This document shows, piece after piece, positions 1 to 4,784 of a stretch of 64,000 nt of DNA. Under the pieces are notes generated by a model. That model did no database searches, had not been told where the DNA came from, and saw nothing but the letters and a program-made list of their open reading frames with translations. Both the position numbers and the translations under genes were made by a program. How positions within the stretch are numbered: position 1 is the first letter of the stretch; each line of letters starts with the position of its first letter. Origin of the DNA: Candidatus Acidiferrales bacterium (lineage in GTDB: Bacteria; Vulcanimicrobiota; Vulcanimicrobiia; Vulcanimicrobiales; Vulcanimicrobiaceae); contig DATJRM010000024.1 in NCBI GenBank assembly GCA_035504755.1, positions 765 through 64,764 of the forward strand. Reading direction: 5' to 3'.

Positions 1-2411
1 GAGGTACCGTAGAGCATCGTTTTCAACGGTATCGAGAACAGCGAAGCCAAGACCACACCGATGAGGACTCCGACGCCACCGCGCGCGACGGCATCGCCGC
101 ATACGTGGCGACCGATCGTCACCGGAGATGCGCCGACGGCGCTTCGGATTCCGAACTCCCGCGTCCGGCGCGCGACCGAGTACGCCGTCAGGGCGTAGAT
201 CCCGGAAAGTGCAAGGACCAGAGCAATGAAGGCCAAGATCCCAAAAACGGCGGCGCTGATTTGCGGAACGGCCAACTGCTGCTCCATTAGCGTGTCGTAT
301 GAGATGACGCGGGGTTCGGGAAGCGACGGACCCGCTTGCAGCGTCGCCCGAAGGATCTCAGCCGACGCGTTGCGCGCCCCCTCCGGCATGCGGAACACGA
401 ATTGCAGAAAACCCCACGCTTGGGCCATCGGCAAATAAAGCATCGGTGCTTGCGCTTCCCCATACGCCTGTGGAACGGATTTAACGACTCCGACGACCGT
501 GCAACCGCGTTGCGTGCTGAAAACGTCGGGTGTGAGAATCCGGCCGACAGCATCGACGGTGCCGTAATACTCGTGCGCCAGCGTTTCATCGACAATCGCC
601 ACGCAGGGCGCGCCCGCATCGTCGGAAGCTCTAAATGTCCGGCCGAGCAGTATCGGGATGCGCAACGTGTTGAAATACTGCGGCGTCACCGCGTTGTAGA
701 GCGTCGTCACCGGCGCCGCGCCGGGCCTCATCGTTACGCCAACCGTGGAGCAGCAGCTCAGCGGGACCTCGACCGAGGCTGCCACGTTGTCCATCCCAAG
801 GCTCGACTGCAACGTTGCAATGACCCTCTGCACGTACGTTCGCATCTGAGTCTTGGTTACGGAACCATCATGTGGAAGCCTCACGGTAGCGACGTAGAGA
901 TTCGACGGATCGAAACCTAGGGGCACCTGCGTCATCGCAACCGCGCTGTGGAAGATCAACGTCGACGCCGCGACAAGGACCGTCGCAAGCGCGATTTCCA
1001 CCACCACGAGTCGAGCGAGTGTCTTTCGCACCTGGAATCCGTCGCCGCCGCGACCGACTGATTGCAGCGACTCGCCGATCCTGCGGCCGCTACGTCCGAG
1101 CCCGGGCAAAAGACCCGTGCTTACCGTGGCCGCGAGCACAAGCACGGATGCATAGACGGCGAGCCACGGCCTCATACCGAGCGCGGCTGTTTGCGCCGGA
1201 TACGCTGCGAGCAGAGAAAGCGAAGAAAGCTCGCGGAGCAGGGGACAAGCCAGGACGAGGCCGACCGCGCAGCCCAGAAGCGCTTGGAGAAACGCTTCGA
1301 TCGTCAACTGGGACGCGATGCGGGCAGGCGAAGCGCCCAACGCCACGCGCACCGTAAGGTCGCCGGCTCTCGTGGTGTTCCGCGCGATGTTCAAGGCAGC
1401 AACGTTCACGAAAGCGATCGCGATAACGATCGACACAAAGACGTAAAGCAGGAGCAGCAGTGGTTCGATCGGTCCGGAGAGATCGTCCGCGATCGGTGTA
1501 ACCCGCACGCAACAAACCCGTTCCTTCACGCTGACGCGACGCTTTACAATCGTCGCCAAGCTTGCCTGGATTTGACCGGTAAGGCTACGCCCGCTCAATC
1601 CGGCACGAACGCGGACGATCGCATTGTAATTATAATTGAAGGTTGCGATCGATCTTGGATCATGTGGATTGATCGAATGCCAGTACGAGCGCTCAACGAA
1701 GCCATACGGCGTTGGATCGTGAAACGCGGGCGGCGCGACACCGACGATCTGATAGGAATGTAATCCAAGGCGCAGGAGCTGCCCAAGCGCGCCCGGCCCG
1801 CCAGCGTAGTGGGCGCGCCAGAACTCGTACGAGATGACGACTTGTGACGTGTCTGCCGTCGCCTTCGAGAAAAAGTGCCCAAGCACTGGTCGGATGCCGA
1901 GCAGGCCGAAGTAGTTCGGCGATACGGTCGCACCGTCAACGAGCAGTGGCCTCCCTTGCGTTGAGAACACCACGCGTTCCGGAGCCGCCAGCGCGAGGTC
2001 GGCATACAGGCCTATTGCACGGGCGAGCGATTGCGCATCGGGGTATGACATCGCGCGCCCTAGGTCCGTCTCTTGGGCAAAGAGTAACTGGCCGGGCTGC
2101 GAAAACGGCAAAGGGCGTAACATGAATCCTTCGACCAGCGATGCAACCACGACGTTCGCCGCGATCGCCAGGCCCATCGCGATAACGGCGACCGCGGTCA
2201 CGAGCGGAGCCCGGAACAACGAGCGCCCGGCGGTTTGAACGTCGCGCCCGATCGCCTCGATCCTCATCAGCGCGCCCGTTACGGCGATATCCCAGGCGGC
2301 TGCCCGCCAATCGCCGGCCTCGAATTCGGCGGTCAGCTGCTCGCGGTAATGATCACGAAATGCTCTTGGGCAGAGCAAGAGGGAGAGGCGAAGAACGATA
2401 CGCTTGTGCAT
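1..2411 (-). CDS. ABC-type efflux permease, duplicated FtsX/MacB-like (ADOP-type); C-terminus runs off the left window edge
   Basis: Absent from the ORF track because the frame stays open to the window edge. My translation from ATG 2411..2409 (minus) reads MHKRIVLRLSLLLCPRAFRDHYREQL...LFRAPLVTAVAVIAMGLAIAANVVVASLVEGFMLRPLPF. The same frame near nt 185 reads AYSVARRTREFGIRSAVGASP, an FtsX-domain loop. The layout parallels the full-length permeases at 42029 and 45046. Confidence 0.8.
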   Translation of the reverse strand, partial: MHKRIVLRLSLLLCPRAFRDHYREQLTAEFEAGDWRAAAWDIAVTGALMRIEAIGRDVQTAGRSLFRAPLVTAVAVIAMGLAIAANVVVASLVEGFMLRPLPFSQPGQLLFAQETDLGRAMSYPDAQSLARAIGLYADLALAAPERVVFSTQGRPLLVDGATVSPNYFGLLGIRPVLGHFFSKATADTSQVVISYEFWRAHYAGGPGALGQLLRLGLHSYQIVGVAPPAFHDPTPYGFVERSYWHSINPHDPRSIATFNYNYNAIVRVRAGLSGRSLTGQIQASLATIVKRRVSVKERVCCVRVTPIADDLSGPIEPLLLLLYVFVSIVIAIAFVNVAALNIARNTTRAGDLTVRVALGASPARIASQLTIEAFLQALLGCAVGLVLACPLLRELSSLSLLAAYPAQTAALGMRPWLAVYASVLVLAATVSTGLLPGLGRSGRRIGESLQSVGRGGDGFQVRKTLARLVVVEIALATVLVAASTLIFHSAVAMTQVPLGFDPSNLYVATVRLPHDGSVTKTQMRTYVQRVIATLQSSLGMDNVAASVEVPLSCCSTVGVTMRPGAAPVTTLYNAVTPQYFNTLRIPILLGRTFRASDDAGAPCVAIVDETLAHEYYGTVDAVGRILTPDVFSTQRGCTVVGVVKSVPQAYGEAQAPMLYLPMAQAWGFLQFVFRMPEGARNASAEILRATLQAGPSLPEPRVISYDTLMEQQLAVPQISAAVFGILAFIALVLALSGIYALTAYSVARRTREFGIRSAVGASPVTIGRHVCGDAVARGGVGVLIGVVLASLFSIPLKTMLYGT

Positions 2412-2633
2412 CGGCCCTCCGTTCGTTCGCGTTCGAGTATACACTATCGGTGGATTCGGTTCACGGGCGCGGCGCGTTCTTCGGAAAATCGCCGGAGTGC
2501 GACTTTTGGCACGCCCGACGGCGGCCACGGTTGACGAGTTGATACCCTTTGTGGGATACTGACCCGTCCCACCCCGCGCCATCTTTCGACTTGACTGCGA
2601 TTGAATTGCGCACACTCGAAAGATTGAAGACTC

Positions 2634-3809
2634 ATTTCTACCTTTGCTCAGCTCGGATTGCACCCGAGCCTTCTCCGCGCGCTCAGCGATCTCAAATTCA
2701 CCGAACCCACGCCTATTCAAGCGCAGGCCATCCCGCCCGCCCTTGAGGGTCGCGACGTGCTCGGCGGCGCGCAAACCGGAAGCGGCAAATCCGCCGCCTT
2801 CGGCCTTCCGATCATCCAGTCGCTCATCGAGGAACGCGGAAAGACGCGCGGCCTGGTGCTGGTACCGACGCGTGAACTGGCCGAACAAGTCGCGACGCAT
2901 CTCACCGCTCTAGCCAAGTACACGAACGTGCGCGTTGCCGCGGTATACGGCGGCGTCGGTTTCGGCCCTCAGGTCGCCGCGTTCCGCGGCGGCGTCGAAG
3001 TCATCGTCGCCACGCCCGGACGACTGATGGATCTGATGCAAAGCGGTCACGCACGGCTCGGAGCGATCCGCACCGTCGTGCTCGACGAAGCCGATCGCAT
3101 GCTCGACATGGGATTTCTCCCGAGCGTGCGCCGCATTTTGAGCGCTCTGCCGCAGCAGCGGCAAACGTTGTTCTTCTCGGCCACCCTGCCGCCCGCGATC
3201 TCCGTCCTGGTGCGCGAGATGCTGCACGATCCCGTTCGCGTGGAGCTTGCGCCGAAAAGTGCCGCCGTCGCGACGCTGCGTCAGACCCTGTATGCGGTTC
3301 CAAACGAAAAGAAGACCGAGCTGCTCTTGGAGCTGCTGAAAGATAATCGGATCTATCAAGCGATCGCCTTCACGCGCACGAAATCGCGCGCAAACCGCCT
3401 CGCCGCCGCGCTTGCGAAAAACGACGTTCCGACGGACTTGATCCACGGCGATCGCACGCAAGGGCAGCGAACGCGTGCGCTGAGCAATCTGAAGAAGGGC
3501 AAGTGCCGCGTGCTCGTCGCCACGGATATCGCCTCGCGCGGCATCGACGTGGCGGACCTCGGGCACGTCATCAATTTCGACGTACCGCTCGCAGCAGAAG
3601 ACTACGTACACCGCGTCGGGCGGACCGCCCGCGCGATGGCCGAGGGTGACGCGATCACCTTCGTTTCATCGGATGAAGAATCGCTCGTACGCCGGATCGA
3701 GTTCGCTCTGGGCAAGCGGCTCGATCGATCGGTTAATCCACTCGACCCGAAGGCGAGCATCGAGCCGCCGAAGCCGCGTGTCGTGTATCGGGCACGCCGG
3801 CGCCGCTAG
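2634..3809 (+). CDS. ATP-dependent DEAD-box RNA helicase (RhlE-like)
   Basis: The ORF has a Q motif TEPTPIQ, Walker A AQTGSGKSAAF, VLDEADRMLDMGF, SAT and HRVGRTAR. The track start is TTG 2658. I set the 5' end to ATT 2634 because the conserved upstream Phe of the Q motif (2643-2645) precedes the first canonical start. The start remains uncertain. Confidence 0.9.
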   Translation: MSTFAQLGLHPSLLRALSDLKFTEPTPIQAQAIPPALEGRDVLGGAQTGSGKSAAFGLPIIQSLIEERGKTRGLVLVPTRELAEQVATHLTALAKYTNVRVAAVYGGVGFGPQVAAFRGGVEVIVATPGRLMDLMQSGHARLGAIRTVVLDEADRMLDMGFLPSVRRILSALPQQRQTLFFSATLPPAISVLVREMLHDPVRVELAPKSAAVATLRQTLYAVPNEKKTELLLELLKDNRIYQAIAFTRTKSRANRLAAALAKNDVPTDLIHGDRTQGQRTRALSNLKKGKCRVLVATDIASRGIDVADLGHVINFDVPLAAEDYVHRVGRTARAMAEGDAITFVSSDEESLVRRIEFALGKRLDRSVNPLDPKASIEPPKPRVVYRARRRR

Positions 3810-3827
3810 ACTATAAGGAGTACGATC

Positions 3828-4121
3828 ATCGCTCGTAAGCGCAGCACCGACCGCAAAGAAGCAAAAGCACGTCCCGTTCAAGATAACCGCGAGGCGCCGC
3901 TCGAGGTCTACGGAAGCGTCAAACAGGTTTTCCCCAGCACGCTGTTTTCCGTCGAACTCGATAACGGCCACATCGTGCTCGCGCACATTGCGGGCCGTCT
4001 ACGCCGGCACCGCATCAAAATTCTTCCCGGCGATCGCGTCGATCTCGAGCTTTCGCCCTACGACTTGACCAAAGGACGCATCGTCTATCGCTATCGCGCC
4101 GGAGAAGCACGCCGGACCTAG
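3828..4121 (+). CDS. infA: translation initiation factor IF-1
   Basis: Not in the ORF track because it has no ATG/GTG/TTG start. My translation is ...[66 protein letters not shown]. It follows the IF-1 S1/OB fold closely (compare E. coli [40 protein letters not shown].KGRI). AAGGAG lies at 3815-3820, ATC codons at 3825 and 3828, and the TAG stop at 4119-4121. Confidence 0.85.
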
Positions 4122-4784
4122 CTACACGCTCGAGTAATCGATGGTGCTGAACGTCAAGAAGTAGATGATCATCACCCAGTAGATCAGGTACGATACGAGC
4201 GGCAAGAAGAAGGCGAAGATCAGGCCGACGACGCGGATGTAGAGCGAAAATCGGATGCGGCGATAGGTCGCGCGCGCATGTTCGGGCGGTACGTCCGCCT
4301 TATACGCGCCGCTCACGATGAGGTGGCGCGACATCAAGAAGCCAAGAAGCGCGCCGACCAGCAGCACGATGGAGTACAAAACCGCGGCTGCCGGAAGCGT
4401 CGGATATGTGCCCGCCACGTTGGTCGCATACGGGATGAACGCCGCGACGACGAGGAACGCCGTGGTCAAGAGGATCGTCGTATGGTCGAGGATGCGCACC
4501 CCATGGAACATCGCGCTGTGAAGCCGCCAGTAGTTGACCATGATGAAAAAGCTCAAGAGAAAGGCCAGCAGCCTCGGCCACTGGGATGCCAGCGCGTGCA
4601 CGAGCGCCCCGTTGTTCGCATCGCCGAGCACCGGAACGGCGAAGTTCAAGACGAGCAGCGTCGCCGAAATAGTGAAGATTCCGTCCGCGAATTGCTCGAG
4701 CCGGCTAGGCGTCATTGGGGCGTCTACGCGGAGGTATCGAGGTAATCCCTCTGCGGCCCGACCCTCCCGAATATGGGTAAACAC
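4122..4784 (-). CDS. TMEM175-family (DUF1211) potassium channel-like membrane protein
   Basis: The signature RLEQFADGIFTISATLLVL (the RxxxFSDGVFAIAITLLVL type) is followed by multiple TM helices. The start could be GTG 4784 or the internal ATG 4715 (MTPSRLEQ). Confidence 0.7.
   Translation of the reverse strand: MFTHIREGRAAEGLPRYLRVDAPMTPSRLEQFADGIFTISATLLVLNFAVPVLGDANNGALVHALASQWPRLLAFLLSFFIMVNYWRLHSAMFHGVRILDHTTILLTTAFLVVAAFIPYATNVAGTYPTLPAAAVLYSIVLLVGALLGFLMSRHLIVSGAYKADVPPEHARATYRRIRFSLYIRVVGLIFAFFLPLVSYLIYWVMIIYFLTFSTIDYSSV

Follow-up and report, generated by a model that had tools for sequence, protein, structure and literature searches.

An IF-1 gene with a conserved near-cognate AUH start codon in one family of Eremiobacterota

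Directly behind an RNA helicase gene in a 64,000-nucleotide (nt) stretch of contig DATJRM010000024.1 (the whole of which is called the window here), taken from a metagenome-assembled genome (MAG) deposited as Candidatus Acidiferrales bacterium, lies a gene for the translation initiation factor IF-1 whose start codon is AUC. We found the same gene across the family of soil bacteria to which this bacterium belongs, nearly always starting at AUC, AUA or AUU (collectively AUH), and this family-wide retention suggests a link between IF-1 output and start-codon proofreading like the one known for IF-3. That the gene is real, that it starts at AUC 3828 and that the weak start is under selection we regard as very likely. 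Taken as a whole, the explanation that fits best is a functional clade of IF-1 genes with, in the window, a start at AUC 3828, a weak start kept by selection and feedback through IF3 and IF1, and we consider this account probable. The features of the locus are collected in Table 1.

The identity of the gene product is clear from its fold. A single open frame of 103 residues (3810–4118) scores 100.4 bits against the NCBIfam infA equivalog model TIGR00008 (cut-off 61.15), with residues 28–95 spanning model positions 2–69 of 69 and hence the whole S1-like OB domain, and 86.8 bits against Pfam PF01176 (E 7e-25, cut-off 30.2). Sequence alignment matched query residues 21–90 to 12 distinct IF-1 sequences in the PDB (E 7e-24 to 4e-14), and solved IF-1 structures such as 3i4o and 1ah9 align end to end with the window protein (E 1e-22 to 7e-24). 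Read from ATC 3828, the 97-residue product has a basic N-terminal tail of 21 residues, followed by the S1-like OB fold and a C-terminal tail of 8 residues; it keeps the basic loop G-R-L-R-R-H-R-I-K and the GH...AH motif, and the Arg of FRVEL is replaced by Ser or Ala. The ratio of non-synonymous to synonymous substitution rates (dN/dS) of the OB fold is 0.04–0.09 against 12 orthologues, so the frame is not open by chance. An open reading frame (ORF) beginning at the internal GTG (3975–4121, 48 residues) would lose the N-terminal part of the domain covered by the IF-1 models.

These results agree with much of an earlier note on this DNA, which had recognized an IF-1 OB fold in the frame 3807–4121 and had named the GTG inside GHIVLAH as its sole in-frame ATG, GTG or TTG. 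TIGR00008 and PF01176 support the former, the GTG at 3975 is indeed the only such codon, and all coordinates proved correct. The note also held that the gene had been missed by the ORF track. This is true of a track limited to ATG, GTG and TTG, but a public protein collection already contains the exact 97-residue product from ATC 3828 (P0001), and for a congener NCBI lists an ATC-started product under the name IF-1 (P0009, which is locus L014 read from ATC). The basic N-terminal extension that it described as lacking from classical IF-1 exists, at about 21 residues, but is not peculiar to the window gene: canonical IF-1 proteins of this genome and of the phylum carry one too.

Comparison of orthologous loci placed the start codon. 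ATC, ATA or ATT stands in the same start column behind a strong Shine–Dalgarno (SD) sequence in about 90% of some 85 loci. Within the window's genus every orthologue reads ATC GCT, with AGGAG, GAGAGG or AAAGGA 5–8 nt upstream, whereas the preceding codon varies freely among orthologues (ATC, ATT, ACC, CCT, ACT, TTT, TCT, GTT or ATA); of the two adjacent ATC codons in the window, the start is therefore the second, at 3828. The product would begin (M)ARKR, which parallels the canonical MARRGG. Between orthologues, the N-terminal tail differs at third codon positions about twice as often as at first or second ones, indicating that the tail is read in this frame. The SD of the window gene, AAGGAG, would form a duplex of −7.7 kcal/mol with a 16S tail taken from three relatives, the 16S 3′ end being unassembled in this MAG, and is spaced 7 nt from ATC 3828. 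Around the start, the RNA is predicted to fold less than shuffled sequence does (z = +1.77). The earlier note had favoured initiation at AUC behind this SD, as the start column bears out, and had allowed for a canonical upstream start in relatives that was merely mutated here; no such start was seen, and the relatives carry AUH too.

We also assigned starts by a rule that presupposes no answer, taking the best pairing with the 16S tail among all in-frame ATG, GTG, TTG, ATT, ATC, ATA and CTG codons at 81 loci from about 50 genera. This selected ATC at 40 loci, ATA at 24, ATT at 8, TTG at 3, GTG at 2, ATG at 2 and CTG at 1, giving an AUH codon with a strong SD in 72 of 80 loci. L050 and L068 are among the remaining picks, and their homologous column nonetheless reads ATC or ATA. 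A divergent subgroup, g18, starts ATT CCC CCT after GAAGGAG. The median SD energy in the clade is −8.1 kcal/mol, compared with −5.8 kcal/mol for the best canonical candidate of 1,830 genes in this genome. Canonical IF-1 copies were examined at 11 loci and start with ATG in all of them. Separately, locus L078 (G266:C1:426331-427055), the sole IF-1 gene of a near-closed genome, contains a 1-nt insertion between the N-terminal tail and the fold (GCC TCC versus GCT CC in a relative), which is probably a long-read consensus error and not a real frameshift.

The codons found in the start column do not follow genome usage. The genome has a GC content of 64%, with C, G, T and A at 44%, 35%, 12% and 9% of third codon positions, and its internal ATN codons are ATC (60%), ATG (26%), ATT (12%) and ATA (2.5%). 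In the start column, ATA accounts for 30% and ATG for no more than 5%, an enrichment of the former and a depletion of the latter whose direction is clear, even if the nominal binomial p of 3e-11 is too strong because the loci are related. The gene tree requires at least 14 switches among ATC, ATA and ATT and only about 5–7 to any other codon. Thus, the third base turns over while G is avoided, although ATG is a single step away.

The genome in question (2.61 Mb in 98 contigs, 89% complete) holds two IF-1 genes, of which the window gene is the second copy. Canonical infA, on contig C42 (G000:C42), starts with ATG, overlaps the map stop, follows adk–map and encodes MARRGGRRPARAK..., the basic tail of the canonical protein; the window IF-1 is 57% identical to it. 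The existence of a second infA had been raised in the earlier note as a point that could tell against the window gene: the canonical copy is there, but the translation signals of the window gene are clear and purifying selection on it is strong. In the protein tree, the AUH-started genes, g18 included, form one clade with 100/98 support and a long stem, apart from the canonical IF-1s of Eremiobacterota, which group with ordinary bacterial IF-1s. Members share the signature PSTxF(S/A)VEL in place of PNAMFRVEL, the loop RLRRHRIK and the C-terminal tail RYRAGEARR.

Of 296 genomes sampled from the window's family, 216 carry the clade, against none of about 104 that represent 20 other families of the phylum. 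When one genome per prokaryote species was scanned, matches of at least 67% identity were all MAGs of Eremiobacterota, Vulcanimicrobiota or Baltobacteraceae, save for a few records whose labels are obviously loose, and other phyla reached at most 65% identity. Judging by these searches, the clade is confined to a single family of Eremiobacterota, which public records call Baltobacteraceae. With TIGR00008, canonical copies score about 122 bits and clade members 94–111 bits, and we counted IF-1 content by hand, by score class, in the 192 genomes of the family with a completeness of at least 90%. About 90 of them have one or more clade members only, about 78 have both types and about 19 the canonical type only. 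The first group includes the closed genomes G130, G169, G170, G171 and G385 and all 15 g18 genomes. As the sole IF-1 of some 90 high-quality genomes, the clade is, by this gene-content argument, a complete and sufficient IF-1 and not an accessory OB-fold protein. Sole copies mostly start at AUH, with a few at ATG, GTG or TTG (L100, L069, L055 and L094/L103).

The two types also differ in location. Canonical copies are flanked by adk and map, and the AUH-type genes lie outside the adk–map–infA–rpmJ cluster; neither adk nor map was found beside them at the larger (about 3 kb) loci checked, sole copies included. That cluster is a common context for infA and not a strict requirement of the IF-1 family. 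On contig C42, canonical infA is directly followed by tandem repeats of about 150 nt (GTAGACGAAGTCCCGGTACACGTACATTAGAGAAACCAACG...; 1690–2079 of L001, at the 3′ end of the contig), and neither rpmJ nor rpsM occurs between infA and the contig end. Copy number varies as well. The congener G001 has a truncated AUH-type fragment (G001:C3:310639-310794; residues 23–75, 79% identity, in an open frame of 64 codons) together with an intact canonical copy, which suggests ongoing loss of either IF-1 copy within the genus; G007 and G010 have the canonical copy only. Two AUH-type genes were seen in each of G084 (L043/L044), G119 (L046/L047), G149 (L062/L063) and G239 (L075/L076), and some genomes with two such genes keep the canonical copy as well. 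The window's genus itself contains two subtypes, an ARKR type, to which the window gene belongs, and an ATRNR type, which occupy separate places in a poorly resolved gene tree.

A second initiation-factor gene of this genome also has an AUH start: infC begins ATA GCT CGA, and its start is ATA, ATC or ATT in all 21 relatives read. The initiator tRNA is a normal tRNA-fMet(CAU), which rules out an unusual initiator tRNA as the cause of the AUC start. Nor do the data support loose start-codon use throughout the lineage. Among 2,000 coding-like ORFs of the genome, an SD followed by ATC, ATT or ATA was not in excess (ratios 0.019, 0.023 and 0.017 against a background of 0.0216), in a test of low power, as its strict SD definition yields only a 3-fold enrichment even for ATG. 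Genome-wide, 15 candidates combine an SD with AUH, most of them implausible. Within the reach of this low-power test, AUH starts look rare and gene-specific here, being limited to infC, the window infA, the helicase and perhaps a few more. A possible further case is a HAD-like gene on the minus strand of contig C78 (G000, around 35699), the catalytic motif of which (FCDFNGT) lies upstream of the first canonical start; its N terminus would be provided by an ATT that stands 6 nt behind GAGGA.

The helicase upstream of the IF-1 gene appears to have a start of the same class. Its Q-motif Phe falls upstream of the first canonical start, TTG 2658, and the start column reads ATT or ATC in 7 of 7 orthologous loci, 9–10 nt after a conserved GAAAGAT; translation seems to begin at ATT 2634. 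The probable promoter of the helicase/IF-1 transcription unit, at 2531–2560, has the same −35/−10 layout in orthologous loci. Because ATC 3828 follows the helicase stop by only 18 nt, co-transcription is likely, and the two genes are most likely transcribed together from this promoter; no terminator-like site was found around the locus (2400–4400). The leader of the helicase contains a predicted hairpin that would sequester the SD-like GAAAGA of the helicase, and the leader may be a thermosensor or an autoregulatory element. Its 9-bp stem is invariant in six orthologous leaders and hence shows no covariation, and a search of 2400–4300 gave no Rfam match even at E ≤ 1. The arrangement is not general: the helicase immediately precedes the IF-1 gene in 21 of 81 loci, and the 60 loci without it retain the SD and AUH behind a conserved leader of their own. 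Apart from the helicase, no conserved functional neighbourhood was found, the neighbours being heterogeneous among orthologous loci. Among L009–L019, the congeners whose IF-1 gene has no helicase before it share a conserved leader (AGCGACCTTTGTC...GCAACTCTTCGTGTACCGTTGGGGTT...), about 70 nt long, that precedes the SD and is placed some 60–140 nt before the ATC start.

Table 1. Features of the helicase/IF-1 locus, in window coordinates
Feature	Position	Strand	Remarks
Promoter-like TTGACG-N18-GATACT	2531..2560	+	Probable promoter of the helicase/IF-1 unit; sole sigma-70-like match in 2400–4400
5′ untranslated region hairpin	2581..2624	+	Predicted; arms ATCTTTCGA (2581–2589) and TCGAAAGAT (2616–2624), 9-bp stem
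RhlE/CshA-like DEAD-box RNA helicase	2634..3809	+	Pfam DEAD and Helicase_C; probable start ATT 2634, not TTG 2658
Helicase stop TAG	3807–3809	+	Same frame then open to TAG 4119–4121
SD of the IF-1 gene, AAGGAG	3815..3820	+	Complements the 16S 3′ tail CACCUCCUUUCU of relatives
Upstream ATC, not the start	3825..3827	+	4 nt from the SD; column variable in orthologues
infA-type gene, AUH-start clade	3828..4121	+	ATC start, 97-residue product, stop TAG 4119–4121
Internal GTG, not used	3975..3977	+	Sole canonical in-frame start codon; within the OB fold (GHIVLAH)

What a weak start could achieve here is suggested by the way in which initiation is policed. IF3 together with IF1 sets initiation fidelity (PMC3130014), and IF3 autoregulation acts on the AUU or AUC start of infC (PMC5499595). 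The window IF-1 is very likely translated from the near-cognate AUC 3828, read by the ordinary initiator tRNA(CAU), and the weak AUH start is very likely maintained by selection. We propose that IF-1 synthesis is thereby tied to start-codon stringency, because IF3, aided by IF1, rejects non-canonical starts: high initiation-factor activity would lower synthesis of the window IF-1 and low activity would raise it, and the resulting loop would be one of negative feedback, as known for infC. Dependence on stringency could express itself as such feedback, as condition-dependent output or as both, possibly with the helicase included. In E. coli, IF1, IF2 and IF3 are induced about 3-fold relative to ribosomes under cold stress (PMC6511846), and temperature, nutrient limitation and ppGpp act differentially on non-AUG mRNAs (PMC5499595). 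The feedback mechanism we consider plausible but just short of probable. A bolder version would see a fidelity thermostat, in which a divergent IF-1 with eIF1A-like tails, translated from AUH, would repress itself together with the likewise AUH-started IF3; the helicase would also be gated by its AUH start, the resulting small AUH regulon would sense the occupancy of the 30S subunit by initiation factors (for example, in a cold or nutrient shift) and canonical infA would have been replaced in about half of the family. In this full form we find the proposal speculative and rather unlikely.

Several points weigh against this explanation as a whole or against its feedback part. We know of no infA for which IF1-mediated feedback has been demonstrated. 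In this genome a canonical infA is also present, making the need for homeostatic control of the window copy less evident, and the weak start could merely set a low expression level. Some members have reverted to ATG, GTG or TTG (L055, L059, L069, L094/L103, L100 and L097), so a weak start is not obligatory. Moreover, every genome used is a MAG and the loci share ancestry, such that counts and the binomial test overstate independence. The most serious alternative accepts the AUC start as real and lets it do no more than fix a low translation rate for an accessory IF-1, without feedback by IF3 or IF1. Non-AUG starts cut output several-fold in E. coli (PMC5499595), this genome has kept its ATG-started infA, and canonical starts are more frequent among sole-copy members (about 6 of 28) than among second copies (about 1 of 36), although these are hand counts that are not phylogenetically independent. 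However, most sole-copy genomes still use AUH (ATT in G130, ATC in G088, ATA in G171 and G385), and for a sole, essential factor a merely low level is hard to rationalize. The strong SDs, too, favour a tuned over a minimal output, and E. coli infC yields thousands of copies per cell from AUU (PMC5499595). We deem a fixed low rate unlikely, if worth keeping in mind. It is also conceivable that the helicase and IF-1 together form a stress module, serving most plausibly in a cold or nutrient shift, in which the AUH starts and the shared leader hairpin confine translation to particular states of the ribosome or the initiation factors and this IF-1 copy then acts as an extra IF-1 or as an RNA chaperone; such a role would be compatible with the explanation that we prefer. 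The pairing recurs in several subclades, the helicase has its own ATT or ATC start in all seven loci compared and a conserved hairpin predicted to sequester its SD, and both the cold induction and the condition dependence of non-AUG mRNAs cited above would fit. Against this stand the majority of loci that lack the helicase and have heterogeneous neighbours, the invariant stem, which gives no covariation support, and the many genomes in which the clade provides the sole IF-1 and hence cannot serve stress alone. We are inclined to doubt a stress module.

The remaining alternatives concern whether the gene is genuine and where it starts. A decaying duplicate that has lost its start codon might be expected from the presence of canonical infA and from the truncated fragment that is all G001 has left of the AUH type, but the window gene contains no stop or frameshift, its dN/dS is low, the SD and start column are conserved over about 50 genera and relatives depend on the clade as their sole IF-1; on the dN/dS and sole-copy status we reject the pseudogene reading, which is very improbable. 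Readthrough of TAG 3807, which would make IF-1 a C-terminal extension of the helicase, had been judged less likely in the earlier note, and rightly so. The frames coincide, 6 codons apart, in the window, L007 and L008, but in L011 and L014 the helicase ends in a different frame, L008 carries a pair of in-frame stops (TAA ... TAA), and the 60 loci with no upstream helicase keep the SD and AUH. Since neither helicase frame nor linkage is conserved, we reject the fusion and give it next to no credence. MAGs can carry errors, as the likely 1-nt insertion in L078 illustrates, and an ATC miscalled or misassembled for ATG, or translation from GTG 3975, could be imagined on that account. Yet the AUH column is shared by more than 70 independent assemblies, the GTG lies inside the OB fold, and the part of the fold upstream of it is equally constrained. 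An error was rejected on these grounds, and the chance of either possibility is negligible.

Among translation factors that check their own mRNA, the textbook example is IF3, which is controlled by way of the AUU start codon of infC. The regulation of infA, by comparison, is poorly understood, and our literature search found no description of an AUH-started infA or of infC-like control for IF1. What the window adds is a weak start of the infC type on an IF-1 gene, one that public records already annotate. A whole family keeps an AUH start on IF-1, often on its only copy, across deep divergence and while avoiding a one-step change to ATG, and IF1 homeostasis through start-codon stringency thereby becomes directly testable. 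There is a practical consequence, too: in these genomes, gene callers limited to ATG, GTG and TTG lose an essential marker gene or shorten it, and probably truncate the adjacent helicase as well.

The closest parallel is infC, for whose product in E. coli autoregulation was reportedly described by Butler et al. (1987) and by Brombach and Pon (1987), both listed in PMC9845219, and is summarized in PMC5499595. Both are initiation-factor genes with a conserved AUH start behind an SD and a product that acts in start-codon fidelity, and in this genome even their first codons are similar (ATA GCT CGA in infC, ATC GCT CGT in the window gene). They differ in that IF1 only assists IF3 in discrimination, in that feedback is a feature of infC that we infer for the window gene, and in that AUH-started infA occurs in one bacterial family whereas AUH-started infC is widespread. 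With canonical infA (72 residues, ATG start, adk–map–infA–rpmJ) the window gene shares the fold and passes the same equivalog model, but it starts with ATC, lies outside the ribosomal cluster and has its own signatures and a long stem branch. Chloroplast infA also has a non-AUG start, a functional UUG that limits translation, and changing it to AUG raised output 300-fold (Hirose et al. 1999, as cited in PMC9845219). That gene, however, is organellar, and UUG is a canonical bacterial start accepted by IF3, whereas AUH belongs to the class that is discriminated against. In eukaryotes, eIF1 and eIF5 are said, in a 2010 review by Betney et al., to autoregulate through poor start-site context, which likewise places a deliberately poor start site on the mRNA of a fidelity factor and makes it a thermostat of initiation stringency, albeit in another domain of life and by another mechanism, scanning. 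Finally, eIF1A, the homologue of IF1, modulates stringency through its N- and C-terminal tails, and the window IF-1 is also tailed at both ends.

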